Assembly: GCA_027420455.1 (NCBI GenBank)
Contig: DAIBJA010000078.1
Span: 5,669 to 69,668 of the forward strand
Length of the DNA stretch: 64,000 nucleotides
Origin: Clostridia bacterium
Lineage (GTDB): Bacteria > Bacillota > Sulfobacillia > JAJZYS01 > JAJYTV01
Direction: 5' to 3'
Part shown: positions 42,769 through 64,000 of the stretch, one piece after another
How positions within the stretch are numbered: position 1 is the stretch's first letter
Layout: every line of letters begins with the position of its first letter
Program-made: the position numbers and the translations under genes
The notes under the pieces: model-generated
Databases searched by the model: none
Seen by the model: the letters and a program-made list of their open reading frames with translations, nothing else
Told to the model about the DNA's origin: nothing

Positions 42769-42864
42769 TGGCGGGAGCAGGTGGGAATCGAACCCACCGC
42801 GGACCGTAAAGCCCGCCGGCTGGATTTGAAGTCCAGGGGCTGCACCAGCAGGCCGTCTGTTCCC
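42769..42864 (-). tRNA. selC: tRNA-Sec (anticodon UCA), CCA encoded
   Basis: The minus strand reads GGGAACAG-AC-GGCCTGC-TGGT-GCAGCCC-CTGGA-CTTCAAA-TCCAG-(long variable arm CCGGCGGGCTTTACGGTCCGCGG)-TGGGTTCGATTCCCA-CCTGCTCCC-G-CCA. It has an 8-bp acceptor stem (one A.C mismatch) and a long D stem with a 4-nt loop, and resembles E. coli selC. Confidence 0.85.
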
Positions 42865-49172: not shown

Positions 49173-49330
49173 TTCAACCGCTCCTTTGCCGCGGTCCTCC
49201 CGCGATCAGAATGCGTACAGTATAGCACACGCGTCGGCGGCAGGCACTTGCACACGGCCCCGCCGCGTGCGACACTCGGTCCAGTGATCGTACGCGATAC
49301 CCGCGACGCATCGCCATGCAAACACATACT

Positions 49331-49500
49331 AAGCGCCAGCACTCGCCTCTAGAGGCGAGTGGACGAGGTGGGGGATCTCGGAGCTTTCGGCGGGTGACCC
49401 CCGGTTCGCCTGGACCGTCAAAGACCTCACAAAGCCAGGGAGCGATCCCTTGGGGGAAAAGGGTCGGCAGGCGAGGGACGCAATTGCGCACCCCTCTATC
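49331..49500 (+). ncRNA. glmS ribozyme (GlcN6P-dependent self-cleaving riboswitch)
   Basis: Sequence runs A/AGCGCCAG - P1 hairpin CACTCGCCTCTAGAGGCGAGTG - GACGAGG - TGGGGG...TTCGGCGGGTGACCCCCGGT...CAAAGCCAGGGAGCGATCCCTTGGGGGAAAA. It matches the conserved core as I recall it from Bacillus. The 3' limit is approximate. Confidence 0.85.
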
Positions 49501-49554
49501 TGCATGGCCTGCGCAGCTATCGCGTGAACATGCAGCGAAGGGGTGTTTTTGCTT

Positions 49555-51357
49555 ATGTGCGGCATCATGGGCTATGTCGGCCCAAGACCCGCAGCCGAAG
49601 TGCTGCTGGGTGGTCTCAAACGTCTCGAATACCGTGGCTACGACTCGGCAGGCATCGCGTTGGCCGACCAGGGCAAGATCTACCTGCAGCGCAAGGCAGG
49701 CGCCTTGCGGATACTGGAGGACGTGCTTGCCAAGTCGCCTCCTCCTTTGAGCCACATCGGCATCGGTCACACGCGTTGGGCGACGCACGGAGGTGTCTCG
49801 GACCGTAACGCCCATCCGCATACCGACTGCAACGGCGAGATCGCCATCGTGCACAACGGAATCATCGAGAATGCCGACGAGCTGAGGGCCGACCTTCTGG
49901 CAGCGGGTCATGTCCTTCGCTCGGAAACAGACTCTGAGCTTGTCGCGCACCTCCTTGAGACAGGACCCGCCGATCTGCGTCTTCGCCTGAGCGGAGTCGC
50001 GCAACGCTGCGAAGGAGCTTACGCCCTGCTGGTGATGGACGTGCATCAGCCAGATCGCCTGATCGCCGTGCGGCGCACAAGCCCCATCGCCATTGGTGCG
50101 ACGGCGGACGAAGCCTACGTGGCATCCGGCGCGATCGCACTCGCCCCGTGGCTCGGCGAATGCATCTACCTCGACGACGGCGAGATCGCCGACATCCGCC
50201 CAGGCAAGATCGAGGTCTTCCGCCTGACCGATCTGGCACCGATCGCCAAGATGCTGCACCCGATCGAGGGTGACGGGGAGTTGCCCGATGCGGGCGAGCA
50301 CGGCACCTTCTATCGCAAGGAGCTCATGGAGCAGCCCATCGCCTGGCGCCGCGTCATGGCCGGCAGGCTGGACGACCAGGGTCAGGTCAACCTGCGCGAG
50401 GACGGCATCGACCAGGAGTTCCTCCGAACGGTACAGCGCGTGGTGTTCCTTGCGATGGGCTCCTCACTGCACGCGTGTCAGATGGCGGTGGAACGCCTCG
50501 GCGATATCGTGGAACTTCCGGCGCAGGCCGAGCTCGCAAGCGAATTCCGGGACACGAGGACTTTCCTCGAGCCCGGCACGTTGGCGATCGCCGTCAGCCA
50601 GTCTGGCGAGACGATCGATACCCTCGCCGCGCTACGCCACGCGCGCAACTTGGGTGCAAGGATCCTGTCGCTAGTGAACGCACCTGGGTCTACCATCGCC
50701 CGTGAGAGCGACTATGTGCTCGACCTGAGGGCAGGATTCGAGATCTCCGTCGCATCAACCAAAGCCTTCACCACCCAGGTCATCGCGCTGGAACTCCTCA
50801 CGGCCGCCCTTGCGCAAGCCAAGGGGCGTCCTCTGCCACCCACGGACCTGCACGCGCTGCGCGCCGTGCCAACGGTGGCAGAGGACTTCCTCGACGACTT
50901 CGAATTGCCGAAGGAGTTGGTCGCGACCTGCGCCGGAGCTCCAGGTGTGATCTTTCTCGGCCGGGGACAGGACCTGAGCCTCGCGCGCGAGGGCTCACTC
51001 AAGCTCAAGGAGCTCTCGTACGTCTGGAGCGAGGCGTTCGCCGCGGGAGAGTTGAAGCACGGGCCGCTTGCACTCGTCGACCAGCGGGTTCCCGTGATCG
51101 TCTGCGTGACCGATCCGACACACGCGGTGAAACTCCGTAGTTCTCTCGCAGAGGCAACCGCCCGCGGTGGCTTTGGTGTGGCCATCGGCGCCGACTTGGG
51201 CGCAACGTTGCAAGTGACCCTCCCCCTCAAGGAGCGAATTGGCGCCTACCTCCTGGGTGCGCTACCGCTGCAACTTCTTGCGGTGGAGGTAGCTGAGTCC
51301 AGGGGGTGCCCAATCGACCAACCCCGTAATCTAGCGAAATCGGTGACGGTCGAATAG
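49555..51357 (+). CDS. glmS: glutamine--fructose-6-phosphate aminotransferase
   Basis: MCGIMGYVG provides the N-terminal Cys nucleophile. Two SIS domains follow, and the C-terminus reads ...PRNLAKSVTVE. Confidence 0.97.
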   Translation: MCGIMGYVGPRPAAEVLLGGLKRLEYRGYDSAGIALADQGKIYLQRKAGALRILEDVLAKSPPPLSHIGIGHTRWATHGGVSDRNAHPHTDCNGEIAIVHNGIIENADELRADLLAAGHVLRSETDSELVAHLLETGPADLRLRLSGVAQRCEGAYALLVMDVHQPDRLIAVRRTSPIAIGATADEAYVASGAIALAPWLGECIYLDDGEIADIRPGKIEVFRLTDLAPIAKMLHPIEGDGELPDAGEHGTFYRKELMEQPIAWRRVMAGRLDDQGQVNLREDGIDQEFLRTVQRVVFLAMGSSLHACQMAVERLGDIVELPAQAELASEFRDTRTFLEPGTLAIAVSQSGETIDTLAALRHARNLGARILSLVNAPGSTIARESDYVLDLRAGFEISVASTKAFTTQVIALELLTAALAQAKGRPLPPTDLHALRAVPTVAEDFLDDFELPKELVATCAGAPGVIFLGRGQDLSLAREGSLKLKELSYVWSEAFAAGELKHGPLALVDQRVPVIVCVTDPTHAVKLRSSLAEATARGGFGVAIGADLGATLQVTLPLKERIGAYLLGALPLQLLAVEVAESRGCPIDQPRNLAKSVTVE

Positions 51358-51381: not shown

Positions 51382-51480
51382 TGTGAGAGGGGATTTGAAA
51401 TCCGCCCTGGGGAAAAGAAATCCGCCGGGGGATTTAGAGATCCGCCCTGGGTCGGTTGTGAGCGGGGATTCGAAGCCGAG
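51382..51480. repeat. TGT-initiated block of three 20-bp periodic repeats (GARATCCGCCSKGGG) plus duplicated TGTGAG(A/C)GGGGATT(T/C)GAA, 24 nt downstream of the glmS stop; candidate transposon end / att site
   Basis: Read directly. TGTGAGAGGGGATTTGAAATCC starts at 51382. Repeat units start at 51397, 51417 and 51437. A second TGTGAGCGGGGATTCGAAGCC starts at 51457. Confidence 0.5.
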
Positions 51481-51981: not shown

Positions 51982-52049
51982 ACTCCGGACAATCCGGAGT
52001 ACGTCAACGCCATCGAGGGGCCAGGAACACAGTTCCTGGCCCCTCGATG
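51982..52049. other. two adjacent perfect hairpins (8-bp stem at 51982-52000; 18-bp stem with 3-nt loop at 52011-52049)
   Basis: ACTCCGGA-CAA-TCCGGAGT and CATCGAGGGGCCAGGAAC-ACA-GTTCCTGGCCCCTCGATG. Confidence 0.6.
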
Positions 52050-52057
52050 TTCGGATA

Positions 52058-52232
52058 GCCCATCTGTCCATGAGCGACCTCAGTTCAGGCCGGTCACCAC
52101 TGCGATTAGGTAGATACCGCAACCTCTGTCTGCACGAGACCCCAGTGGAGGCCTGCCCAATAGCCCTCCGCCGTTGCGGTAGTCCTTACTGCAACCTCTG
52201 TCTGTGAGAGACCTCAGCGCAGGAGTCGGCCT
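52058..52232. repeat. three degenerate ~35-nt direct repeats (period 61 and 72 nt), each with GTC(C/T)-N5-(C/A)GAC mini-hairpin
   Basis: TCTGTC cores at 52064, 52125 and 52197. Unit consensus is approximately ACCTCTGTCTGNGAGAGACCTCAGNGNAGG. Pairwise identity is about 70-80 %. Confidence 0.5.
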
Positions 52233-52458: not shown

Positions 52459-52878
52459 TCAACACTTCTGCCGATCCGAGATGGCCGTACGAACTTTTTC
52501 GACGCACCCTACAAGGTCGAGCCTTAGTTCATGCTCCCAAAACCGCAGCACCCGCCAGCGGTTGGCTCGCAGGCGTGCTGTGACGAGAGCATCGCGAAGC
52601 CGGTTCCTTGCCACCTTGGCCTGCCAGTACTCGGCGTTGCCCTTGGGCGCTCGGTAGCAGTCGGGACATCCATGCCAAAAGCACCCGTCCACGAACACAG
52701 CGACCTTTGCTCGCCCGAACACGATGTCGGGCTTGCCATCCAGAGTCTTCAGGTTTACCCGCCAGCCCCTTACGCCTGCACGCCACAAGGCTTTGCGCAA
52801 GGCCAACTCGGGCTGGGTGTTCTTCGAGGCGACCGAGCGCATGATCTCGGAGCGGGTGAGCACCTTCGATCGACTCAT
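52459..52878 (-). CDS. vsr: very short patch repair endonuclease
   Basis: Reads RSEIMRSV.SKNT.PE...PDIVF...KVAVFVDGCFWHGC...W..K...N..RD. ATGA overlap with dcm. Confidence 0.9.
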   Translation of the reverse strand: MSRSKVLTRSEIMRSVASKNTQPELALRKALWRAGVRGWRVNLKTLDGKPDIVFGRAKVAVFVDGCFWHGCPDCYRAPKGNAEYWQAKVARNRLRDALVTARLRANRWRVLRFWEHELRLDLVGCVEKVRTAISDRQKC

Positions 52879-54125
52879 CCCGCAGCGCCTGGTTCCGCCT
52901 CTTGGCCGACATCGCCGAGCAGGGCGCGGGCGTAGGCCATGGCTAACGCGCGCGCCAGAAGCGGCGGAACAGCGTTGCCGACGTGGCGCTGCTGCGTTTC
53001 CGTGACTCCAAAGAACCTGAACCGGTCGTCAAAGCTCTGAAGCCGTGCCGCCTCCCGCACGGTCAGGCTTCGCAAATCGCGGTAGTGCGTGAAGCGCCCG
53101 CTTCCCGGGTTGGAGAAGCTTGTGGTGATTGTCTGAGCGATTCCGCGGCGGTGGAGCCGAGCATACGCCTGGCTGAAGTAAGTGTCGGAGAACCGCTGGT
53201 CGTCGGCCAACTCCTGGTTTCTGCTACCCTCTTCGATGATGCGGATCTTCTCCAGAAACTCCTTCGAGTGCCTGCGCGCCTTGTGGTTGAACAGCAAGCT
53301 CGACCCCTGCCTGCGCTCTGCCTGGAACCTTGTCAGCGCAGGACCCCCATACGGCACGGCCTCTGCCCCCTCCCCTGGTTGCAAGGGCGGCAAGTCGCCG
53401 ATCGCGTCTTCTACCGTGATGTAGCTGCCGGCGATGCGCTGGATCTCTCCGCCGCCGGCATCGTCTTCGGACGGCATCAGCATGCGAGCGTTGGTGAGCC
53501 TTGGGTACGACCCGCGCGGGATGAATGGCGTGCCCAGCCCGGCGTTCCTGCGAAAGCCTACCACGATCGTCCGCTGCCGAAGCTGGGGCACGCCATACTC
53601 GTTGGCGAACACTAGCTCCGCCTTGGTGTCGTAAAGCGGCTCCACGAGGAGCGCGAACCTGTCCAGCAGATACTCACCGGTCTGGGACAGCAGAGTGGGG
53701 ACGTTCTCCATCAGGAACATGCGCGGGCGCAGCTCCAACAAGAGTGACGCGTAATCGAAGATTCGCTCGTTCCGAGGGTCGTCTGGCGACCACTTCTTCA
53801 AGCGCGAGAACCCTTGGCACGGGGGTCCGCCCACAACGATGTCGATGTCCTCGTCGTTCGAGAGGCGCGCGTGCCTGCGAATCTCGGCAGCGAGTGCTGC
53901 GGCGGAAGAACCGGCGTGGGTGTTGAGGTCTTGGACCCAGTAGGCAACGCGAGGGTGGTTCTGCTTGAACGTCGCCGCCGCCTCGCCGTCGACGTCCACG
54001 AGAAGGCGCACGTCGTAGAGCGGCGGTGCGCCGTCCTGCTTGGCGCTCATGAACCCCAGGCTGAATCCACCCACTCCAGCGAACAGGTCCACCATTGAAA
54101 GCTGACGGTACGCCACGTGCCTCAC
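52875..54125 (-). CDS. dcm: DNA (cytosine-5)-methyltransferase
   Basis: DLFAGVGGFSLGF (motif I), GGPPCQGFS (IV), ENV (VI), PQLRQRTIVVGF (VIII), GNAVPP (X). Start taken at GTG 54125, which overlaps the upstream TGA. ATG 54095 is an alternative start. Confidence 0.9.
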   Translation of the reverse strand: MRHVAYRQLSMVDLFAGVGGFSLGFMSAKQDGAPPLYDVRLLVDVDGEAAATFKQNHPRVAYWVQDLNTHAGSSAAALAAEIRRHARLSNDEDIDIVVGGPPCQGFSRLKKWSPDDPRNERIFDYASLLLELRPRMFLMENVPTLLSQTGEYLLDRFALLVEPLYDTKAELVFANEYGVPQLRQRTIVVGFRRNAGLGTPFIPRGSYPRLTNARMLMPSEDDAGGGEIQRIAGSYITVEDAIGDLPPLQPGEGAEAVPYGGPALTRFQAERRQGSSLLFNHKARRHSKEFLEKIRIIEEGSRNQELADDQRFSDTYFSQAYARLHRRGIAQTITTSFSNPGSGRFTHYRDLRSLTVREAARLQSFDDRFRFFGVTETQQRHVGNAVPPLLARALAMAYARALLGDVGQEAEPGAAG

Positions 54126-55960
54126 CCTTGGAAGAGGAAGTCCTTGAGGTCCTGTGCCGCGGCGTCCATGACGCGCTGCCGTATTTGGTCGATTGCCTGG
54201 TCGACGGCTTCTGGCGTGAGCGTGCCTTGCAAGCTGTACAAGGCGTCCTTGATGATGACGTCGACGTGCCTCTGAAAGAGGTATTCGCGCCAACGGTCGG
54301 AGTCCTGCCCTTCTCTGTCTAGGATGTGGCTTGCCAGCGGTCGGGTGGTGTTAATCCAGTAGTAACCGTTGTCGAAATCCTCCGGCCTCTGGTAGATCTC
54401 CGGCTGTCTGGGCAAGCACTGAAACGGCTCCGTGCTCCCAGGATGCTGCCAGTCGGCATCGTAGTTGGACAAAAGGACCTTCGGTGGACTGCTTGTCTTC
54501 TTGCTCTTGTCGCCGGCCCCAGCGCCCTGGTCACCGGATGGCCGAGGCTCACCCGACGGCGGGCGTTCATGGCCGCGTTCCCCGCCATCCTTACCCTGGT
54601 GGTCCGTGCCTTCGCCGCCAGACGGGTCAGCGGTCCCGCCAGGGATGTCCTGCCCCGCCCCGCCCGGCCCGCTTCCGCCGCCCGGCTCGTCGCCGCCAGA
54701 CTGGATCTCCCTTTGGGTGCGCGAAACGAAGCGCGAGGTAAAGTCGTTGAGCAGGTGGTTGTACTGTGCGGACTGCTGGAAGTCTCGCTCCTGCTCGTGC
54801 TGGCGGTCAAGGTCCATGAGCTCCGAAGCCAGATCCTCGACCTTGTTCTTCACCCACGCGAGCAGCTCATCCGTGAGGGCATTCTGCGCCAGCTTCTCCC
54901 TGTCGTTGCGTACGCAGTCCAACGCTTCAAGCGCGGGGCACTCGCACTCGCCGAAGATCGTCTCCGCCGCCGCGCGGCCTGCCACTACGCCCATCTCGCC
55001 GATCTTGTGGGTGGCCACGCAGCTGTCCTCGCACAGGAAGTCAACGGCATTCTGTGCAGCGCGTTCCCCCACGAGCGCGATGTTCGACACCCGAAGCTTC
55101 AACACGCCTGGCAACTGCGTTCCGCCCAGCGTGAGATCGATTGGGTCCTCCGTATCTCCAAAGGTGTCGGGGATCGCGAACTCCACCGGCTTCTCGTACC
55201 CAAGGCGCAGCGGGAGTTCCTCCGGCTGCAGCCTTACCATGGTGTCCCGGTACCGCACATAAACCGGGCGGCGCTGCAGCAGTCTGCTAACTTGCGGGTG
55301 CATGCGCACTTTCGACACGATCGTCTCCACGGTCGCCCTGCCACGAAACTCCTTGGGCTGCCGCCCTACGACAACCGTGAACCCGAGCTCTCCCCGCTCG
55401 ATGCTGCCGCGAATCTCCGCGGGCGCCCAGTCTAGGCTCACGTTCGCCTTCTCAAGGGCTTGCTCCAACGTCATGGGAACGTCCTTGAGGCCTTGCCTGT
55501 AGCCGTACGCGCCTCCATCAAAGCCGAAGGCGTTGAGCTTGCCCGCCCGGTAGGTCAGGAGGGTAGATGAGTTGAACATCTGCCGCATGTAGAGCTTCCC
55601 GCCGTTGCCGTGGCCTCCGAGCGTCCTTCTAAGACGCTGCCTTCCGGCGTGAACCGGCCTGCGCGCGGCTTCGGGATCGCCCCACCGCTTGAAGGAGCTG
55701 TCGATTCTTTCCTTGGTCATGCCAACGAAGTCCACGCAGCGAAAGACGCTGTCCCTCTTGGGTTTCGCCACGTCAAAGTCGAGCACGATGGCTTGCAAGC
55801 CCTCCGGGATCTGCTCGTGATTGTAAGCGTCGATGGAGTTCTTGATCCACTCGGCGAGTCCCTTAGGGTGGCTGCCCGCGAAGTCCACACCCACGACGTC
55901 TAGAAAGTGATCGTCAAATACGTTTCCTTCAGCGACAACGGGTCCTACCTCGATCGGCAA
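54122..55960 (-). CDS. GHKL-superfamily (MORC/MutL-like HATPase) protein with low-complexity linker and unassigned C-terminal domain
   Basis: N-box LAEWIKNSIDAY, DxGxG-like CVDFVGMT and G2 box GGHGNGGKLYM. A ~75-aa G/P/D/E-rich linker follows, then a ~115-aa C-terminal domain (YYWINTTRPLASHIL...). Confidence 0.7.
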   Translation of the reverse strand: MPIEVGPVVAEGNVFDDHFLDVVGVDFAGSHPKGLAEWIKNSIDAYNHEQIPEGLQAIVLDFDVAKPKRDSVFRCVDFVGMTKERIDSSFKRWGDPEAARRPVHAGRQRLRRTLGGHGNGGKLYMRQMFNSSTLLTYRAGKLNAFGFDGGAYGYRQGLKDVPMTLEQALEKANVSLDWAPAEIRGSIERGELGFTVVVGRQPKEFRGRATVETIVSKVRMHPQVSRLLQRRPVYVRYRDTMVRLQPEELPLRLGYEKPVEFAIPDTFGDTEDPIDLTLGGTQLPGVLKLRVSNIALVGERAAQNAVDFLCEDSCVATHKIGEMGVVAGRAAAETIFGECECPALEALDCVRNDREKLAQNALTDELLAWVKNKVEDLASELMDLDRQHEQERDFQQSAQYNHLLNDFTSRFVSRTQREIQSGGDEPGGGSGPGGAGQDIPGGTADPSGGEGTDHQGKDGGERGHERPPSGEPRPSGDQGAGAGDKSKKTSSPPKVLLSNYDADWQHPGSTEPFQCLPRQPEIYQRPEDFDNGYYWINTTRPLASHILDREGQDSDRWREYLFQRHVDVIIKDALYSLQGTLTPEAVDQAIDQIRQRVMDAAAQDLKDFLFQG

Positions 55961-55962
55961 CC

Positions 55963-56562
55963 TTAGGCACTCCCCTTCCGCTTTTCGATGATATTTGCGT
56001 ATCTGCTGACCATGTGGTCGTGGAACTTCCTCAGTTGTTCGGCACGTGGATGGCTAACCTCTTCTGCCGCCTTGACGGCGCCCTCCACGGTGGTCAGACG
56101 GCCGAGGAAGCCGCCGCGGTCGGTGCGCACTGTGGCGGCCAAATAGTAGTAGAGATCCGTGTCCACAACTTGGTCTGCCTTGCCGCCAGCGAACAATTGG
56201 TAGGCCTCCAGGCGCAAGATCCGGTCGATCTCATGCTCCTGGCTCCGGTCCAGCCGCTTCGCGGGTCCTCTCGGCGCATGCCCAGTAGCTCCCGCGAGCC
56301 GTGCAGCCTCTTCGAAGCCCTTGTCTGTCAATGAAAACCGCTTCTCCCGCGACACAACGAGCCCGCGGCTCTTCAATGGGCCGTACAGAGGCTTGTGCAC
56401 GTCCGAAGCGTCGGGGAACTCGGGGTACTTGCGCAGGGAGAAGTCCTGGGGGAAGCGCTTGAAGGCGCCCACCACGATGTCGTCGTAGTCAATGAACTGC
56501 GGCTCGCCGGCTGACAGCTCATACATGACGGCCAGGATCTCGTCAGCCTTGTTTCCCGGCAC
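55963..56562 (-). CDS. hypothetical protein (possible N-terminal winged-helix), operon partner of GHKL ATPase
   Basis: GAAGGAGGG lies 6 nt before GTG 56562. 199 aa. No family recognised. Confidence 0.55.
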   Translation of the reverse strand: MPGNKADEILAVMYELSAGEPQFIDYDDIVVGAFKRFPQDFSLRKYPEFPDASDVHKPLYGPLKSRGLVVSREKRFSLTDKGFEEAARLAGATGHAPRGPAKRLDRSQEHEIDRILRLEAYQLFAGGKADQVVDTDLYYYLAATVRTDRGGFLGRLTTVEGAVKAAEEVSHPRAEQLRKFHDHMVSRYANIIEKRKGSA

Positions 56563-57016
56563 GCGAAGCCCTCCTTCTTCGTGAAGTGCGGGGGGCCGAG
56601 ACGCGACCCGTGTCGACGGCCCGATCCCGCCCGGCCAGACCGTACATGCCCCTGGCCGTCCGTACAAAGCGCTTGTCCTTGCCGATGTGAGCCAACAGGT
56701 TCGCCCCCGGATTCACCCCGGAGAGCTGAGCGCCGTAGCGGCCGAGTTGCTGCGCCATCTCCACGTAGTGCATCGGCTGCCCGACCTGTGTCAGCAATTC
56801 GAACGCGGCATCGGACACTGTGCGTGAGCTTGGCGCCTCTGCCGCTGGTCTGTCCGTGACCTCAGCGAGCTCAAGAAGCTTTCGGACGTGCAATAGCTGC
56901 TGCTCCCGCTGGTCGATTTTCGCTTGCAGTGCCGCCTTGTCGGCATTGAGCTGCGCTAGCTCGCCCCGGAGTTCCTCCGCCCATCGTTGCAGCACTTCAG
57001 GGCCCAGGTCCTCCAT
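56543..57016 (-). CDS. coiled-coil + HARE-HTH domain protein
   Basis: SDAAFELLTQVGQPMHYVEMAQQLGRYGAQLSGVNPGANLLAHIGKDKRFVRTARGMYGLA matches the HARE-HTH pattern (..pm...ei...i............tl.a.l..d.rF.r..rG.ygL). AAGGGGG precedes ATG 57016. Confidence 0.65.
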   Translation of the reverse strand: MEDLGPEVLQRWAEELRGELAQLNADKAALQAKIDQREQQLLHVRKLLELAEVTDRPAAEAPSSRTVSDAAFELLTQVGQPMHYVEMAQQLGRYGAQLSGVNPGANLLAHIGKDKRFVRTARGMYGLAGRDRAVDTGRVSAPRTSRRRRASRAGKQG

Positions 57017-57038
57017 CCGGCCGCCCCCTTGCATTGGC

Positions 57039-57067
57039 ATGTTAGACCATTTTCAACGCATTGTCAA
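57039..57067 (-). promoter_or_regulatory. candidate promoter of the HARE-HTH/GHKL/dcm/vsr operon
   Basis: On the minus strand: TTGACA, 17 nt, TAACAT. This excludes the listed ATG 57040 as the start codon. Confidence 0.5.
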
Positions 57068-57220
57068 CCGCTTGCCAAATCCCCCGCCATGGCTGCGCCC
57101 CGCTGTGGCAACAAGCCGGCCTTTGCCCATCAGGTCACGGTTGGCAATCAGGGTTCGACCGAAATAGGCGGAGCGCGTCCGAACCCGGCCGACGCACGCT
57201 CCCCCGAAGGTTTACGCCCG

Positions 57221-57376
57221 TCAGGAGAGGCTAGAGTCGTCCTTCCTGCCGGCACCCTCTTCGTCGTCGAACGTGATCTCCACCTGGTCGCCGATCGCAA
57301 TCTCCATAAGTTCTCTCAAATCGAACGGCAGCACGATGCGCCCATCCGCGTCTACCTGCACGATGTACTCTCGCAC
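57221..57376 (-). CDS. AbrB/MazE/SpoVT-family small DNA-binding protein
   Basis: Reads VQVDADGRIVLPFDLRELMEIAIGDQVEITFDDE. GGGAGG lies 7 nt before GTG 57376. No toxin partner is visible. Confidence 0.55.
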   Translation of the reverse strand: MREYIVQVDADGRIVLPFDLRELMEIAIGDQVEITFDDEEGAGRKDDSSLS

Positions 57377-57722
57377 AATCCGGCCTCCCTGCCTGGAATC
57401 CAACAAGCCTCCACCATTCTAGGTCGCGCCCGTCTTCCCTTCCACGTTATGGATCTCCCACTTGCAGGCTTGGTCGAGTTCGCCAAGCGGCAATGCGGTC
57501 CCTCGCATGGTTGGGCGCCTCCATGCAGGCTTTCAAGTCCGCCCGGTGAAGCACGTGCTGGCATCCGCGAGGTGGATTTCTACCCCACGGGTCCGACGCA
57601 GGTGAGCGTGGAAGCGGTCGGCGAGATGGTGCGGCTCGGGATGAGCGACGGGTGTTCCACTACAGGGGCAACGGCGGCTACTTCCCTGGATCGACGATCA
57701 AACTACGCCGGGAGAACTAAGG

Positions 57723-57744
57723 GCGGGCCCTCGCGAGGGCCCGC
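57723..57744. terminator. perfect 22-nt GC palindrome
   Basis: GCGGGCCCTCGCGAGGGCCCGC, downstream of the minus-strand fragment at 57870-58520. Confidence 0.4.
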
Positions 57745-57869
57745 TCCCTCCCTTTACTGCATGCGCTGAACGAGCAGCACCCCCCTTCCGGCAGTGCGAG
57801 GTGAGCGCCAACGCGGCTGAACATGCATGGTTCGCCGCCGGGCCACCGAAGTAGCCGCCATCCCAGGCT

Positions 57870-58520
57870 TCATCCGCGGAGCTGATCTGCTTCGTGCCCC
57901 GCAGAGCATCGCACACACGCTCCTCGGCCCCGTTGCGCATTCCGCAGATTGCCAGCTGTCCTCCCCCCTGCGGGCCGGCCCGACAGGTGTCCGAGCAGCG
58001 AGTAGCGGTCCGGCAAATGGACAGCACGCGTAGGATCGAGGACGCGCTCACAATGTTCTGCCGTGACGGTGACGAGCGTATGCCCGTCGCGCGACAAGGC
58101 GCGCAGGGCGCTCTCCAAGGCTGCGTGAACCAGCCCCGCCGCCATTTGCGCCTTTCGGCTTCGCGGGCCGCCAAGATGGCACATGCTGTCGTAGTCCGCC
58201 CAATGGGCCACGAGCAGGGCTGACCGCCGACCTGTCGAAGCCCTCGCCAGAACTTCGGCCAGCTCCATCAAATCGTCGTAGGCGGCCGCGCTTGCGCCAC
58301 GGGCGTGGTAGCGGCTGAGCGCGCTGCCCGCCAGTGCTCGCCGAGTGACGCTGACCTGTCTCCCCAGGCACGGTTCGCCAGTGCGCAGAAATGCAGGGGC
58401 ATCCCAGACCCCGGCGAACCCTGCGGGCAGAGGGCTCTGGAGGAGGGGTGCAGCCTTGGCCTTGACGCTTGAACAGATCCAGGAGAACGACCGGCGGTTT
58501 CTGACCGACTTCCACTCCAC
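57870..58520 (-). pseudogene. alkaline-phosphatase-superfamily (nucleotide pyrophosphatase / PglZ-like) fragment
   Basis: LLVAHWADYDSMCHLGGPRS...HTLVTVTAEHCE resembles the y..D..gH..Gp / ADHG motifs of the AP superfamily. Only ~200 aa are present. Its 5' end collides with a divergent ORF. Confidence 0.35.
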
Positions 58521-59265
58521 AGGCGTCTGGACTCACGAGTACGCAGCCATTGCACTGCACCATGAAGCACTGCGGCTGCCGGACGACACCTTGCTCGATC
58601 CTAGCGACAAACCGCGTGTCCAAATGGTGATCGTGGCCAAAATCTTCGCGGAGGCCGTGGCCTCGATGGAGACCCTTGGCAAGCTGCTGCAAGCCATTCG
58701 GGCGCGTCACCCCGACGGGATCGCCTACAGATATGTCAACGGCACGGAGCACGATTCCGAACGTGGCTTGAGACTGTTCCGCCGTCCGCCCACGGATCTT
58801 CTGCAAGTGCTGCGGCTCCCCGCGCTGCCGGAGGTCGAGGCTGTCCTGCCGGAGCCCGGCGGCGTTCAACAGACGATTGAAGCCATGTCCGAGCACATCC
58901 AGGAGGTCTATGCCGCCTATCTTGAACCCCGGCCCGACGGGTCAGAAGCAAAGTCGATCGTGCGCGCATACAGGCACATAAAGCACGGCAGTTGCCTCGT
59001 CACAGACCCAAGGACGGTCGCCATCTGGTCTGCCCAGCCGTCGCCGGAGGACGTACACATCTTAACGAGGTGGCCGAATGCTCAAGAGAGCAACGAGCAC
59101 CTGGAGCTGAAATCAGTCAGCATGCGGGAACCTGACGTGTTGCAGAACATAGGCATCTGCAAGCTGGCTTCCGTAGTCGGCAGCAATCTGTGCCAGCTCG
59201 CGGTAAAGCTAATTGATGCAGGCCTGCTTTCCTACGCTCCTGAGGGCCCCAACGCAGGACCCTGA
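58456..59265 (+). CDS. hypothetical protein
   Basis: GGAGGAGGGG lies 7 nt before TTG 58456. The 269-aa composition is protein-like. No family recognised. Confidence 0.4.
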   Translation: MALTLEQIQENDRRFLTDFHSTGVWTHEYAAIALHHEALRLPDDTLLDPSDKPRVQMVIVAKIFAEAVASMETLGKLLQAIRARHPDGIAYRYVNGTEHDSERGLRLFRRPPTDLLQVLRLPALPEVEAVLPEPGGVQQTIEAMSEHIQEVYAAYLEPRPDGSEAKSIVRAYRHIKHGSCLVTDPRTVAIWSAQPSPEDVHILTRWPNAQESNEHLELKSVSMREPDVLQNIGICKLASVVGSNLCQLAVKLIDAGLLSYAPEGPNAGP

Positions 59266-59393
59266 CCTGGCTGAGGGTCCACGCCCCGGGGCAGTTCAGA
59301 CGCTGCCGTAGACGCACCGGATCGCAGACCTGTAGGCCGCGTTGCGTGACGTGCGGCGGCCTCACACTCTGAAGGACTGGCGCGCGCGTCGCC

Positions 59394-59850
59394 ATGGAGG
59401 TCTTGCTTGAAACAGACGTGCACGCCGTCGAGCGCGTTCAGATCCTTTTCCGGGACGTGGACCACCACGACCTGGCGATCGCCGTCACGCTGCAGAAGAC
59501 GGGCAACGTTCGCACCGCGGCCATCACGCCTACCGTCAAGCTCAAGCGTCAGACACTTCGAAGGACTGCAGCGACAATCACGGCAGCTCGCACGCCACAA
59601 GCTCTCGGTTCCGTCGCTGAGCTGCGGCGCTCCCGTGACGCCTTCAGGCCTGTTCCACCCCATCGTCAGGACGTTCCGCGCCGGCAGCGACAGGAGGTGT
59701 CGGCTCGCACCGGTTCCGCCACGAAATGATCCGGAGGCTGCTCACCGACGGGGCGGATCTTGGGACCGTCGCAGAGATCGCCAGCCACTCGTCGGTCACC
59801 ATGACCGAGCGGTACGGCCGGCTTCGGGACAGAGAGCGCCACGCCACCCA
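59394..59850 (+). pseudogene. tyrosine recombinase/integrase remnant (frameshifted, N-terminally truncated)
   Basis: Frame 0 reads LFRDVDHHDLAIAVTLQKTGNVRTAAITPTV (the L.w.DvD...i.v...Kt.k.R.vpl pattern). A second frame reads GSHRFRHEMIRRLLTDGADLGTVAEIASHSSVTMTERYGRL (box II H..RH...GH....T..Y). The box I Arg position appears substituted (TDVH). Confidence 0.65.
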
Positions 59851-60083
59851 TCGCGCTCACATTCCGCTCCCCCAAATCCAACGAAGAAGGCACCGCCTGT
59901 CCGTTGGCCTAAGGGCAAGGGACCCCGGGTGAGTCTCCGGGGCCTCTTCACGCACCTGCGACAGGAGTCCCATGTCGCAATAACGCGAGGTTTAGAGGAC
60001 GTTGCCGGCACTTTCTCCATTGGCAGCGCTCGGAGGATCTAGCCGACACCCGGCGAACACCTCCGCTGCTCTAACAGCTTCGG

Positions 60084-60569
60084 ATGATGGGGCACTCTGA
60101 TCCAGAAGTCGGAGGTCGTAACGTGCAGGACGCGCCGCCGCCTTCAGGCGATTCACTCGAACAGCGAGAGGCCGAGGAGTACATGCGGGACCAGCTATCC
60201 CTCCGCCTCGGCCGGCCCTTGCACAAGGCCCGGTTCCGCTTCGACAACGGCGCCTCGGTCGAAGTTGACGGCGTGCTGGACGACCCCTTCACGCTGGTTG
60301 AAATCTGGGCCCACGTCGGTCCGCCCAAGTCGGCCCAGCGTCAGAAGGTGAGCCACGACATCCTGAAGCTCATGCTGGTCGAGCGTCGGGCCGGTCGGCC
60401 GGCCAAGAAGCTTATCGTTATGGCGGATCCGGTCACCGAGGCGCACTTTCGCGGCCGCCGCTGGATCGCCGAAGCAATGCGAGAGTTCGGCATAACACTA
60501 TTGGTTGTGGAAGTGCCAACTGACATGCGCGCACGCCTGCTCGCGGCACAGCGCCGGCAGTACAGGTGA
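60084..60569 (+). CDS. hypothetical protein (possible PD-(D/E)xK-like core: VEVDGV...LVEIWAH)
   Basis: 161-aa ORF with an uncertain start (ATG 60084 or ATG 60183). The nuclease-fold idea rests only on the motif spacing. Confidence 0.35.
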   Translation: MMGHSDPEVGGRNVQDAPPPSGDSLEQREAEEYMRDQLSLRLGRPLHKARFRFDNGASVEVDGVLDDPFTLVEIWAHVGPPKSAQRQKVSHDILKLMLVERRAGRPAKKLIVMADPVTEAHFRGRRWIAEAMREFGITLLVVEVPTDMRARLLAAQRRQYR

Positions 60570-61109
60570 CTGCCTTGCACGCCACTCCCGGGACGACAGC
60601 CGCTCCTTGCTCCTCGGGCCGTAAGCAGGCAGCCCCAGGCGCCTGATCGTCTCAAGCCATGTGGCCCCGAATAGCCGCATGTGTTCGCTCGGCGCGAGAA
60701 CGCGCAATACATCCAGGATGCTGACCGTGCGATACGGTCGTGCCGTGGCGTCCCGTAAGGGCGCAACCATCGGGATCTGCGCCTCCTCAAAGCGGAAACT
60801 GCATAGAGGCACCTCCCGGCAGGCCAGCCACCCCGGGGCGCTCCGCGTGCCAAAGACCCGCGGCACCTCGTACTTCCACCAGAAGGCCCCCGCGGCGTGC
60901 TCCAGGTAGACCTCCTGACAGGCCTCCGGGGACAGGCCCGACGCGTCGATCATGCCGACGCCAGGCACACCTCTGCGTTCGGCGTTGATGCGCACCTGAC
61001 GCGACTTTGGTGGACCCATGCGCACGACCTCCACCGGCTGCACGGGATCGCCGAGGGCTCGTGCACTCTGGCGGTAGGCAAACCTCTGGCCAGGAATGTA
61101 CGTGGGCAT
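60498..61109 (-). CDS. hypothetical protein
   Basis: ORF 60498..61157, start taken at ATG 61109. Its 3' end overlaps the convergent ORF by 72 nt. No family recognised. Confidence 0.3.
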   Translation of the reverse strand: MPTYIPGQRFAYRQSARALGDPVQPVEVVRMGPPKSRQVRINAERRGVPGVGMIDASGLSPEACQEVYLEHAAGAFWWKYEVPRVFGTRSAPGWLACREVPLCSFRFEEAQIPMVAPLRDATARPYRTVSILDVLRVLAPSEHMRLFGATWLETIRRLGLPAYGPRSKERLSSREWRARQSPVLPALCREQACAHVSWHFHNQ

Positions 61110-61151
61110 CACACCACTCTTCTCGCGGGCGGCTAGGCAAGACCAGCCAAC

Positions 61152-61502
61152 TGTCAAATATTCGTGTCATACATTTGTCATACAACACCTGCGACAGCTG
61201 CGCCAGAAGCGGCTTTCGGGAACAGCCTATACCTACCATGCGCCATCGCAGAGCCCATTTCGCCCTTTGTGAGACCAGATCGGCCGAATGGTAACAATTA
61301 GTGTCATACGTTGTTTATACAATTCCCCTGAAAGCCGCGCTAGGAGCGGCTTTCAGGTACGTCCTTTTCCTTCCATTCGACACAGTGGAGCGCGTTTTGG
61401 GCCGTTTTCGGACCTGTACACCGAGGGCCGCGTCAAATCTGTCATATGTTTGTCATACAAAACAGCCGCAAGCCATGCCAGGAGCAGCTTTCGGGCGCGC
61501 CC
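61152..61502 (+). repeat. Tn7-like transposon end: terminal TGT plus three direct ~65-75-nt repeat units (period 137/138 nt) each containing a GTGTCATAC(A/G)TTTGTCATACAA-type putative TnsB-binding site
   Basis: Units begin at 61164, 61301 and 61439, each preceded by GTCAAAT/GTAACAAT. All are in the same orientation, are AT-rich within GC-rich DNA, and lie upstream of tnsA. Confidence 0.6.
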
Positions 61503-61931
61503 ACTTTCTTCTGTTCTGCGGGCCGGTTCCTGGTCCGTGCATGCAGCTTGCACCGCGAGCGCCGATCTCATGGCTTCATTACGACCAAAGCAGGTGCATC
61601 AACGTGCTCACTACCTTGCCTGTCACTCATCTCATACCATGCGGCCTTGCGCTATATCCTGCGCAGTGCCAGTTTACAGAATGCATATCGGTGGTTGACG
61701 GTTCGGCGTGAGCGGCCTACCACCAGCCATGTATGCATCTATTCCGTCCTGGGCACAATGATTTCACGTGAAGGGGATCCAGATTTGCCACACCGGCCCT
61801 GGCGTCGCGCTTGGCCAAGGAGGTCTTGCCGGTATCGGGCAGAGACAACGTTTCCTCAATGCCCCGCAAACAGATCTCGATATTCGCCTACCATCGCCGC
61901 AAGTTGGGCAACAAGTGAGGCTGACTCCGTA

Positions 61932-62225
61932 ATGCAAGACCCCTTGGCTGAGATCTCCAGGTTTCTAGCCGGGAGGCACCAGCCGATGCCCGCAGGTGCG
62001 GATGAGGTGCTGGAGCGACGTCCGGAGTTGATCGAACAGCTGTTGCGTGACCTTCGGCGGCTGCAGTGCGACGAAGGCATGGTCTTCCTCTACCGGGTGA
62101 CATGCATGGTGTGGGCAGGCTCGGTCGCGGATCTCGATGATGTCATCCGACAACCCCTCGCGGGTCCAGATATTCGGGTGGCAGCAGAGTGGACCGGGCG
62201 GTGGAAGGTCGACTCCATCCCCTAG
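61932..62225 (+). CDS. hypothetical small protein between transposon end and tnsA
   Basis: 97 aa with GC-rich third codon positions. No family recognised. Confidence 0.35.
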   Translation: MQDPLAEISRFLAGRHQPMPAGADEVLERRPELIEQLLRDLRRLQCDEGMVFLYRVTCMVWAGSVADLDDVIRQPLAGPDIRVAAEWTGRWKVDSIP

Positions 62226-62332
62226 TGGCACGTGTGCAGGCGAAGTTTGAAAACTCGCGCAGGTTGTTTAGGAGAAGGGAATGGTTTTGGCCAATCTGGA
62301 CTGCGAGGCAACGTCACAGCAGGGAGGGGTGC

Positions 62333-62527
62333 ATGGTGGCTGAGGTGGCTGGACAGTCTGGCCCGATCTGGACGCTGGCGGAGGAAGGGCCGCAGATAGT
62401 ACTGGTTCTCAGCGTAGAAGAGCGGAGCGCGCTGTCTTCAGCCCTTGAGCGGCCACCTTTCCACTCCGTTCGAGACCAGGTCATCCCCCTGGTGCCCATG
62501 CCGTCGAACAGCGAGGAAGACATCTGA
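62333..62527 (+). CDS. hypothetical small protein
   Basis: 64 aa. GGGAGGGG lies just upstream of ATG 62333. Confidence 0.3.
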   Translation: MVAEVAGQSGPIWTLAEEGPQIVLVLSVEERSALSSALERPPFHSVRDQVIPLVPMPSNSEEDI

Positions 62528-62603
62528 AACCTCTCGTTGGAGTTTGACGGCTGGCGCAGAGGCCAAGCGACCGAGGGCTCGTAGGAAGTCAGGAGGGATT
62601 GGT

Positions 62604-63407
62604 GTGACCCGGAAGAGGAAGCCGCCTGGAACCATCCTTGACCACGGCGACCGGTATCAGCCCGCCATCCAAGCCCATGACATTCGCAGTCCACACTCCA
62701 AGCGCACCCGAATCTGGGGCGTCAAGACGCATCGTTTCCACCACCTGCTCTCCCAGCTCGAATGCAGCGTTTACTTCCAGGCGGAGCGCGACGGGAGGGT
62801 GAAGGACATCCAGGAGCAGTGCGAACTGAACCGTGACGAGACCGTGATGATCGCTGCTCGGCTGGGCTACCGACACCCTGCCGGCCAGCACGCCATGACC
62901 TCCGATTTCATCATCACCGTAGTTGCTCATGACGGGTCTACCCGTCAAATCGCTATACACGTAAAGCACGCTTCAAAGTTGTCCCGCAACATGGAATGGA
63001 TCAACGTGGAGGCCTATTATTGGAGTGCGATGGGCATCCCTCTTTATGTGATTACGGAGCTGGATATCGAGGCTGAAGTCATCCATAACGGTCAATGGCT
63101 GTACTTCGTGAATACGGCGGAGTTCGACCGCCTCAGTGCGTTGCCCAACTTCGGGGAGATAGTCTCCTCGCTGACCGCCTACGTGACCTCAGGGCGCAAG
63201 CTGTCGATGGCCTGCGAACAGGCTGAACGCGACTACGGACTGCCTCCCAACTCTGGCTTGCTGATGGCGAAAGTGCTCATTCGCGAACGGGGATGGGTCA
63301 CCGATCTCTCAGTCCGAATTCGACTCGGTAGGCCGTTAGTCTTGCTGGAAGACAGAACTCAGGAGTGGCTCAAGGAGGTAACGAACCGTGAAACTGCGAC
63401 TGCTTGA
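62604..63407 (+). CDS. tnsA: Tn7-like transposition protein TnsA (restriction-endonuclease-like)
   Basis: AGGAGGG precedes GTG 62604. Motifs LLSQLECSVYFQAE (S.LE), TSDFIIT (tPDFlv) and IHVKHASKL ((E/Q)VK) are in the TnsA order. Confidence 0.75.
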   Translation: MTRKRKPPGTILDHGDRYQPAIQAHDIRSPHSKRTRIWGVKTHRFHHLLSQLECSVYFQAERDGRVKDIQEQCELNRDETVMIAARLGYRHPAGQHAMTSDFIITVVAHDGSTRQIAIHVKHASKLSRNMEWINVEAYYWSAMGIPLYVITELDIEAEVIHNGQWLYFVNTAEFDRLSALPNFGEIVSSLTAYVTSGRKLSMACEQAERDYGLPPNSGLLMAKVLIRERGWVTDLSVRIRLGRPLVLLEDRTQEWLKEVTNRETATA

Positions 63408-64000
63408 GGATCAGGTTCTGGCATGGCATTCCGAGGCAGGGAACCGGTTGACCAGGGTCGTTTCCGTCGACGTAGCCAACGGCATCGTGCACCTCTACGA
63501 CATGGAAGAAGGCAAGAAGAGCTTCCCTTGGCCGGCGAGAATCGATGACCTGCAGGCCGCACACGACGCGCTCAGCCTTACAGTCATTGCCGACCCGTAT
63601 GGCCCCCTCCGTCAGCAGGCCCGTGATGCTGCAACTCCCGCACAGCAGGAGCGTCGGGCCCTGAGATGGTCCCAGATTGGCCCGATCGTGCGCGACCCCG
63701 GGATGCTGGACAGCCGGTCCCGTGGCGAAGCGGTTGCCGAAGCGCTGTCTGAAGGCGCCAAGCTTCTGAAGGACCCCCACGCGGTGTATGAGGCCTGCCG
63801 ACGCTGCTGGTGCCGCGGCATGGTACCGGACAGCCTACTGCCCAATTTCCACAGCTGTGGGTCTCCGGGTAAAGAACGGTCATCAGAGTCATCAGAGTCA
63901 TCAGAGGACGTTGGCGCAAAGCGCGGCGTAAAGCGGAAGAAGGAAGGGAAGGAGCTCGGAATCCCGATCGGGCCGGCCGAGCTGCTTTCCATCCGCACCG
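63388..64000 (+). CDS. tnsB: TnsB/TniA-like transposase, N-terminal part (continues beyond window)
   Basis: AAGGAGG lies 9 nt before GTG 63388, and the gene overlaps the tnsA end by 20 nt. My own translation is open to the window edge. The N-terminal region is HTH-like. The catalytic DDE core is not in the window, so the call rests on synteny. Confidence 0.55.
   Translation, partial: MKLRLLEDQVLAWHSEAGNRLTRVVSVDVANGIVHLYDMEEGKKSFPWPARIDDLQAAHDALSLTVIADPYGPLRQQARDAATPAQQERRALRWSQIGPIVRDPGMLDSRSRGEAVAEALSEGAKLLKDPHAVYEACRRCWCRGMVPDSLLPNFHSCGSPGKERSSESSESSEDVGAKRGVKRKKEGKELGIPIGPAELLSIRT

Follow-up and report, generated by a model that had tools for sequence, protein, structure and literature searches.

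The element reported here comes closest to Tn7 of Escherichia coli, which moves by means of a heteromeric TnsA and TnsB transposase, the TnsC ATPase and the TnsD target selector (the TnsABC+D pathway). Tn7 inserts a couple of dozen nucleotides (nt) downstream of glmS with its right end and tnsA side toward that gene, and it has TGT...ACA termini with sites of about 20 nt, which lie close together at the right end and further apart at the left one. Counts of four right-end and three left-end sites are cited for Tn7 (PMC8649781). Tn7-like transposons have been defined operationally by two intergenic regions that share at least two inverted repeats of about 20 bp, one region lying no more than 20 kb from tnsB, and 6,549 elements were delimited by this definition (PMC8649781). 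We analysed a 64,000-nt stretch of DNA from a Clostridia bacterium (contig DAIBJA010000078.1 of assembly GCA_027420455.1), hereafter the window, in which an earlier note had described a tnsA-tnsB gene pair behind a repeat array that it read as a Tn7-like transposon end. We found that tnsA and tnsB lie in a 20,874-bp Tn7-like transposon that extends from 51382 to 72255 at attTn7 behind glmS, and that the array lies 9.8 kb inside this element from its true right end and is not an end of the mobile unit. The element resembles Tn7 in its TnsA, TnsB, TnsC and TnsD genes, in the position and orientation of its insertion and in its termini and the packing of their sites. In contrast to Tn7, it carries two TnsD paralogs and no TnsE, its proteins are orphans with at most 32% identity to any public protein, and its right end is separated from tnsA by approximately 11 kb of cargo, array and two small open reading frames (ORFs), compared with less than 0.2 kb in Tn7. 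Additionally, the internal three-unit composite array has no counterpart in Tn7.

Two public contigs that carry an identical TnsA were used to lengthen the window. The first, L002, was 100% identical to the window, and the second, L001, was 99.94% identical, with all seven differences confined to 56482-56521. The public contigs added 9.4 kb, or 11.5 kb once a third contig (L003) was included, and the window together with the overlapping contig sequence formed a 75.5-kb composite on which the motif and end searches were performed. Positions past 64000 are given as window-equivalent coordinates, which were projected from L001.

The right end of the transposon is situated 24 nt past the stop codon of glmS, a gene that matched NCBIfam TIGR01135 with 599.8 bits against a cut-off of 418 and whose 3' end is an attTn7-type attachment site. 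As evident from its layout, TGTGAGAG GGGATTTGAAATCCGCCCTG GGGAAAAGAAATCCGCCGGG GGATTTAGAGATCCGCCCTGG, this end has a TGT terminus, an 8-nt lead and three sites at 20-nt spacing. We found the same terminus in inverted orientation at window-equivalent 72229-72255 (L001 19626-19652), where all 27 of 27 positions were identical, and a second inverted site was located 46 nt further in (window-equivalent 72180-72203, 23 of 24 positions), which gives two left-end sites in all. The two ends differ in packing, the right one having three to four sites spaced at 20 nt and the left one two sites 46 nt apart, and their outer termini read TGTG...CACA. This pair conforms to the published definition of Tn7-like ends (PMC8649781). 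Because the tns genes are enclosed by this canonical inverted end pair, the mobile unit was set at 51382-72255. The sequences flanking the outer ends are ATGGGAT/TGT and ACA/GGATTT (the slash marks the junction), which have GGAT in common and fit a 4-bp duplication or a 1-nt slip. The outer ends are probably the cognate ends of the TnsB encoded by the element, a full-length Tn7-type TnsB, as they enclose the tns genes, lie where a TnsD element would insert and show a right/left asymmetry in keeping with the tns orientation.

From the right end inwards, the element consists of a non-coding stretch of about 1 kb, a cargo block of approximately 8.7 kb, the array, orf79, orf64, tnsA, tnsB, tnsC, tnsD1 and tnsD2, followed by an SDH-protease/NfeD-like gene, a 79-aa gene and the left end. 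The right end is turned toward glmS, whereas the tns genes are oriented away from that gene. At a distance of 6 nt beyond the left end lies a third Tn7-type end, again a right end, with epimerase, DUF1801 and TauE genes behind it and no tns genes. Since no tns genes stand behind it, this end looks like a relic that a previous insertion left at this attachment site. The outer sites and the relic end have in common a TGTG terminus, an 8-nt lead, a period of 20-22 nt and a CTG(A/G) 3' edge, which are hallmarks of the family and features of the Tn7 sites as well. The presence of several Tn7-type end arrays at one attachment site, with the relic so close to the left end, is similar to the arrangement in nested or tandem Tn7-like islands (Tn6022/AbaR, PMC11014353; PMC8649781). 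The coordinates of all features are collected in Table 1.

Table 1. Coordinates of the transposon, its genes and its internal array (positions past 64000 are window-equivalent)
Feature	Position	Strand	Description
glmS ribozyme and glmS	49321-51357	+	Ribozyme 49321-49476 (Rfam RF00234, 71.7 bits); glmS gene 49543-51357
True right end	51382-51478	+	Terminal TGTGAGAG, three GGGGATTTGAAATCCGCCCTGG-like sites every 20 nt, degenerate fourth copy
Cargo block	52459-61109		Between right end and array; from gene calls, Pfam and composition
Array	61152-61516	+	Three direct repeat units, conserved cores 61165-61241, 61302-61378 and 61440-61516; internal to transposon, non-coding
First module, unit 1	61165-61185	+	Two tandem 11-nt sites; counterparts in unit 2 (61302-61322) and unit 3 (61440-61460)
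Second module, unit 2	61327-61357	+	Perfect 12-7-12 palindrome CCTGAAAGCCGC GCTAGGA GCGGCTTTCAGG; imperfect counterparts 61190-61220 and 61465-61495
orf79	61986-62225	+	Orphan; alternative ATG at 61932 gives 97 aa (orf97); called as a gene in L001 and L002; singleton cluster
orf64	62333-62527	+	Orphan small gene, called in public assemblies; singleton cluster
tnsA (267 aa)	62604-63407	+	Pfam PF08722, E = 1.3e-10; PDB 1f1z (Tn7 TnsA), E = 1.5e-23
tnsB, 5' part	63388-64000	+	Full gene 714 aa, stops at 65532; L001 gene call with HTH_TnsB; 7pik match
Two adjacent TnsD/TniQ paralogs	67067-70358 (L001 14464-17755)		TniQ and TnsD domains; TnsD domain 2.5e-29 and 1.7e-45
Third Tn7-type right end	72262-72348 (L001 19659-19745)		TGTGGAGT, then three to four copies of CAATAGnnnTTCGCGCTGAT at 20-nt spacing

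The gene assignments of the earlier note were upheld. The ORF that had been proposed as tnsA matched the TnsA profile (PF08722) and the Tn7 TnsA structure (1f1z) with the E, D and K catalytic residues aligned (sqlE, tsDf and hvK, compared with sdlE, tDf and qvK in Tn7). The ORF proposed as tnsB, which overlaps tnsA by 20 nt at its start as described, was completed from L001, and the 714-aa protein matched Tn7 TnsB (7pik, E = 6.5e-49) over residues 67-696. The residues D301, D389 and E425 of the DDE triad were invariant among 30 relatives; the Pfam rve model gave no match to this protein, and only Mu-transpos_C matched it (E = 0.0011). It had also been predicted that the element runs off the window and that the target selector lies beyond it. 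We found the left end approximately 8.3 kb past the window edge, and the overlapping contig carries TnsC (TniB, E = 5.9e-16; AAA_22, E = 8.5e-17) and then two TnsD paralogs. The two paralogs are 28% identical to each other, and both match Tn7 TnsD (8glu), the second being the more similar to it (Pfam TnsD, 1.7e-45; 8glu, 1.5e-20). Their presence suggests two target pathways, and glmS targeting is probably served by the second paralog. TnsA, TnsB, TnsC and the two TnsD paralogs form the single tns gene set in the 75.5 kb; no tns remnants were detected in the composite, and no tns pseudogenes were present beside the outer right end. Likewise, the two small ORFs that had been noted between the array and tnsA are called as genes in public assemblies and show coding-like GC contents at the three codon positions (GC1/2/3 of approximately.72/.44/.72). 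Neither of them has a family or PDB relative, the PDB sequence searches being empty.

The earlier note also gave an accurate account of how the array is built. The sequence TGTCAAATATTCGTGTCATACATTTGTCATACAA begins at 61152, as was confirmed by direct reading, and three direct repeat units of one family start at 61165, 61302 and 61440, with spacings of 137 and 138 nt; in a repeat search, the copies were 56-77 nt long and 70-77% identical. Every unit opens with the two tandem half-sites that had been described, which are 11-nt sites of the TGTCATACA type (TGTCATACATT TGTCATACAA). The second of them is degenerate in unit 2 (GTTTATACAA), and in unit 1 the TGT at 61152 comes from a third copy (TGTCAAATATT), which is degenerate too. 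The 21-mer of this first module is not a chance occurrence, as 0.00 matches to it were expected in shuffles. The conserved second module, GCYAGRAGCRGCTTTCRGG, was likewise present in every unit (at 61202, 61339 and 61477), at a constant offset of 37 nt from the unit start. Across the window and L003 this motif was unique to the three units, with 0.07-0.2 matches expected by chance, and a dispersed element of the repetitive extragenic palindromic type was rejected on the grounds of this confinement. The motif and the 12 nt upstream of it form a palindrome. In unit 2 it gives the perfect 12-bp hairpin reported earlier (61327-61338 paired with 61346-61357), and pairing amounts to about 9 of 12 positions in unit 1 and 8 of 12 in unit 3 (hand count, per-pair table), with one compensating C:G to T:A change. 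The whole array is an AT-rich block in a GC-rich background, as had been noted, with a GC content of 0.53-0.56 compared with 0.645 for the window.

The inter-unit spacers, of approximately 55-60 nt, were no more alike than shuffled sequence, and the stretch to the left of 61152 was outside the repeat and had no homology to these spacers in shuffle tests. A tandem-repeat model was rejected, as Tandem Repeats Finder found nothing, the spacers were not significantly alike and the left flank was outside the repeat. Among the units, the two modules retain 75-90% identity, while the spacers have decayed to background. This contrast points to two motifs, in DNA (or RNA), that selection has kept at a rigid spacing. 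The array is located in an 880-nt non-coding gap. This gap is bordered on one side by a 203-aa gene that reads leftward and has its start 43 nt from the array, and on the other by the rightward string orf79-orf64-tnsABCD1D2. No reading frame across the array had a coding-like GC content at third codon positions (GC3), and no gene is called within it in public assemblies; on both counts, coding repeats, apparent as an in-frame peptide repeat (SY.CHT...GAAFG), were rejected. A guide-RNA or spacer role was also rejected, since the inter-unit spacers matched nothing in 75 kb beyond chance. As for a CRISPR-associated transposon, no Cas domain was found in any gene of the element, and no CRISPR match was obtained with Rfam.

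To be a Tn7-like end, as the earlier note proposed, the array would be expected to have an inverted partner at the opposite end of the element, and that claim was not supported. We looked for an inverted copy of the motif in the 75.5 kb with exact patterns, with patterns that allowed mismatches, with a 21-mer scan and with a blastn-short comparison of the two sides, and found none; the best minus-strand 21-mer had 9 mismatches, and from 51 to 73.4 kb no minus-strand TGTCATACA with one mismatch or fewer was present. The earlier note had itself named the lack of an inverted copy as grounds for refuting its reading. As there is no partner end, a target-site duplication at 61152 cannot be defined. 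The array does start with 5'-TGT and has direct repeats of a site of about 20 bp, but this TGT belongs to a degenerate half-site. Moreover, the sites of a Tn7-type end would be expected to be contiguous or separated by a few tens of bp and to be conserved over the site alone, and no such end has been described with a spacing of 137/138 nt; in the array, conservation spans approximately 77 nt and, with its rigid second module, exceeds a TnsB site. Unlike the end arrays of nested Tn7-like islands, the array has the site motif of neither neighbouring end and has no partner, and neither its 137-nt period nor its added palindrome is seen in those ends. A different pair, the canonical outer ends at 51382 and 72255, encloses the tns genes, and the array is therefore not an end of the mobile unit.

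Taking these results together, we lean, if only modestly, toward the reading that the array is an internal, non-coding part of a glmS-site Tn7-like transposon and acts in cis as a protein-binding control region. Several points weigh against it. The duplication flanking the outer ends covers four of five bases and is not a clean 5-bp repeat, and the binding of TnsB to the outer sites is deduced from their architecture. At the array, no sigma-70-like promoter or terminator was found. No array-binding protein was identified, and the AlphaFold2 single-sequence models of orf64 and orf97, with predicted local distance difference test (pLDDT) scores of 64 and 56, were too poor to use in classifying these proteins. 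In canonical relatives (L066), the right end lies directly upstream of tnsA, so the nearest repeat array upstream of tnsA would normally be the end. Finally, GC3 shifts at the array, from 0.73-0.81 in the cargo to 0.57-0.74 on the tns side, and both this shift and the initial TGT fit a former junction.

The last two points also speak for the main rival explanation. In this view, a second Tn7-like element, with the array at 61152 as its right end, brought in the tns genes when it inserted into a non-autonomous element that carried the outer ends, and the left end of the inner element was later deleted. The array would then be a one-ended fossil, and the earlier note would be right about what it once was, an outcome we consider unlikely but deserving of serious attention. 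It is consistent with the position of the array upstream of tnsA in right-end orientation, with its TGT start and three direct repeats of about 22 bp, with the retention of the right end beside tnsA in distant relatives, and with a GC3 change exactly at the array. The sequence to the left of 61152 is not homologous to the inter-unit spacers, so a sharp junction may lie at 61152, and Tn7-like elements with nested insertions and with extra ends are on record (PMC8649781, PMC11014353). However, no left-end partner was found within 14 kb downstream. The deletion must have removed every inner left-end site and yet halted no more than about 200 bp from the intact outer left end, because the low-GC SDH-protease and 79-aa genes run up to that end. 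The outer element would also have lacked tns genes of its own, of which no remnants were seen, and the agreement between the orientation of the tns genes and the right/left asymmetry of the outer ends would, if the elements were nested, be a coincidence with a 50% chance. TnsB ends are not known to have a 137-nt spacing or a rigid additional palindrome, and the TGT is simply part of a degenerate half-site copy.

Considered on its own, the assignment of the array as a cis-regulatory protein-binding array is tentative, and we hold it with somewhat less than even confidence. If it is correct, each unit would offer a head-to-tail site made of two 11-nt direct repeats one helical turn apart and, sixteen nt beyond it, a symmetric 12-7-12 site. 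As the units are 137-138 nt apart, corresponding to approximately 13 helical turns, proteins bound to them would share one face of the helix, which would allow cooperation through DNA looping, and the bound array would control how strongly the tns operon, the divergent gene or the two together are expressed. Candidate binders would be a host factor of the response-regulator type or the product of one of the orphan small ORFs.

A resemblance to the Pho box might bear on the first of these candidates. Pho-box operators of OmpR/PhoB-family regulators are sites for head-to-tail dimers of OmpR-family proteins, and the first module of the array is similar in that its two direct repeats recur every 11 nt and contain the core TGTCAT. 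Of the 18 positions of the E. coli Pho-box consensus (CTGTCATAWAWCTGTCAY), 15 are matched by this module. In contrast to the proteobacterial setting of that consensus, the context of the array is not proteobacterium-like, with a glmS ribozyme and 64.5% GC. No other Pho-box-like site was found within the window, and no -10 element was present at the distance expected from the Pho-box-like site of the array.

Selection on the modules could also act on a transcribed RNA, in which the unit hairpins would serve, for instance, as protein-titrating or attenuator stem-loops with a GGA/AGGAG loop, either in a long tns leader or as small RNAs. The perfect stem of unit 2, the compensating C:G to T:A change, the conserved loop GCYAGRA and the long non-coding region are consistent with such a transcript. 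We nevertheless consider it improbable, as 3-4 of the 12 pairs are lost in units 1 and 3 with no compensating change and the first module is left unexplained. The array folds only marginally better than shuffled sequence (z = -2.1 and -1.8 on the two strands), an Rfam scan of 60900-62700 returned a single chance-level match (E = 5.3), and no promoter or terminator signal accompanies the hairpins.

Alternatively, the array might be a leftover from some other mobile element that was taken up as cargo, with a role in cis like that of plasmid iterons, a centromere or an oriT-like inverted repeat. The layouts of iterons, parC and oriT are resembled by 11-nt tandem repeats combined with a palindrome in an AT-richer block, and the array adjoins orphan cargo genes. 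This origin appears very doubtful, since a search of the whole element revealed no gene for a Rep or Par protein, a relaxase or a recombinase, and three widely spaced clusters of two repeats are atypical for an iteron or a centromere.

A more specific form of the protein-binding reading was also considered. Phage Mu has an internal activation sequence/operator, a cluster of binding sites inside a DDE transposon of the Mu/Tn7 transposase lineage that belongs to the early control region and lies approximately 1 kb away from the genes for the transposase. By analogy, the array might conceivably be the transposition control hub of a deep-branching Tn7 lineage, bound by TnsB through a second DNA-binding domain or by the products of orf79 or orf64. 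Three phased composite sites would then assemble or silence the transpososome and the tns promoter. We regard this as a long shot. The analogy with the Mu operator region is functional only, as no sequence relationship exists, and use of an enhancer is not known in the Tn7 family.

The locus was found to be isolated among public sequences. In an exhaustive search of 1.84 billion representative proteins, the best relative of TnsB was 32% identical, and the nearest relative of TnsA was a Massilia protein with 31% identity, whose locus was uninformative on end architecture. A word-indexed homologue search with TnsB recovered only TnsB itself. Within tnsB, three copies of a 9-nt tandem repeat (TCATCAGAG) at 63880-63906 encode a SESSESSE low-complexity insert, which Tn7 TnsB does not have and which probably swamped that search. 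No homologue was found for the 203-aa neighbour of the array. Searches for the array motif gave 17 single chance matches in GTDB representative genomes, all in AT-rich genomes, 0 matches in JGI metagenomes, and 0 matches and 1 chance match in the IMG/VR searches. The true-end sites had 45 matches in metagenomes, all of them unrelated (a 10-nt microsatellite, the coding sequence of a secretion ATPase and others) and none with tns genes. In IMG/VR, too, neither the array motif nor the true-end motif was present beyond chance.

The cargo block consists of genes for Vsr, a Dcm methylase, orphan proteins of 612 and 199 aa, a HARE-HTH protein, a MazE-like protein and orphan proteins of 269, 211, 148 and 203 aa; its GC3 is host-like. 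The Vsr, Dcm methylase, orphan 612-aa and 199-aa and HARE-HTH genes form a minus-strand cassette at 52459-57016, which is likely a restriction or defence module, and the MazE-like gene (51 aa) follows at 57221-57376. PADLOC and PHROGs gave no matches among the cargo genes. The seven differences between the window and L001 fall in the orphan 199-aa gene, where most are silent and two alter the protein (E to D and F to Y), the other 11.4 kb being identical, which suggests local conversion or a strain-variable patch. The orphan 148-aa (plus strand) and 203-aa (minus strand) genes converge with a 72-nt overlap at 60498-60569. The 211-aa gene call at 59407-60042 has GC1/2/3 values of.62/.66/.66, a GC3 that is not coding-like, and may be in the wrong frame.

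Some additional features were observed near the ends of the element. Between the two left-end sites, a small hairpin followed by TTTT (AACCCGC ATGAGAAAG GCGGGTTTT; window-equivalent 72203-72228, L001 19600-19625) might serve as a terminator that faces outward or as a site for a host factor. The non-coding stretch of about 1 kb inside the right end contains a perfect 18-bp hairpin at 52011-52049, a pair of 37-nt direct repeats at 52115 and 52187, and a 20-nt GTCTGTGAGAGACCTCAGCG-like motif at 52066, 52128 and 52200 that recurs at 56848-56867. Outside the element, a tRNA-Sec gene is located at 42769-42864 (ARAGORN; Rfam RF01852, 68.7 bits); like the glmS ribozyme and the GC content of 64.5%, it gives some indication of the host.

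The present result moves the boundary of the transposon by 9.8 kb, so that the defence-type block with Vsr, Dcm and the HARE-HTH protein is cargo within the mobile unit and not flanking chromosome. Although very divergent, the locus has the canonical architecture of a Tn7-like transposon in attTn7, sitting in the classical glmS site beside the relic of an earlier Tn7-type insertion, and it adds to the diversity of the family a very divergent lineage with TnsABC and two TnsD proteins. Two of its traits are mildly unusual: the cargo lies between the right end and tnsA, together with two small genes, and the element has an internal three-unit composite array, which is known from this single instance. 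If the array is indeed regulatory or enhancer-like, it would bear on the control of transposition in Tn7-like elements, and if it were a transposition control hub, the Tn7 family would gain its first described example of a cis-acting regulatory element at an internal position.

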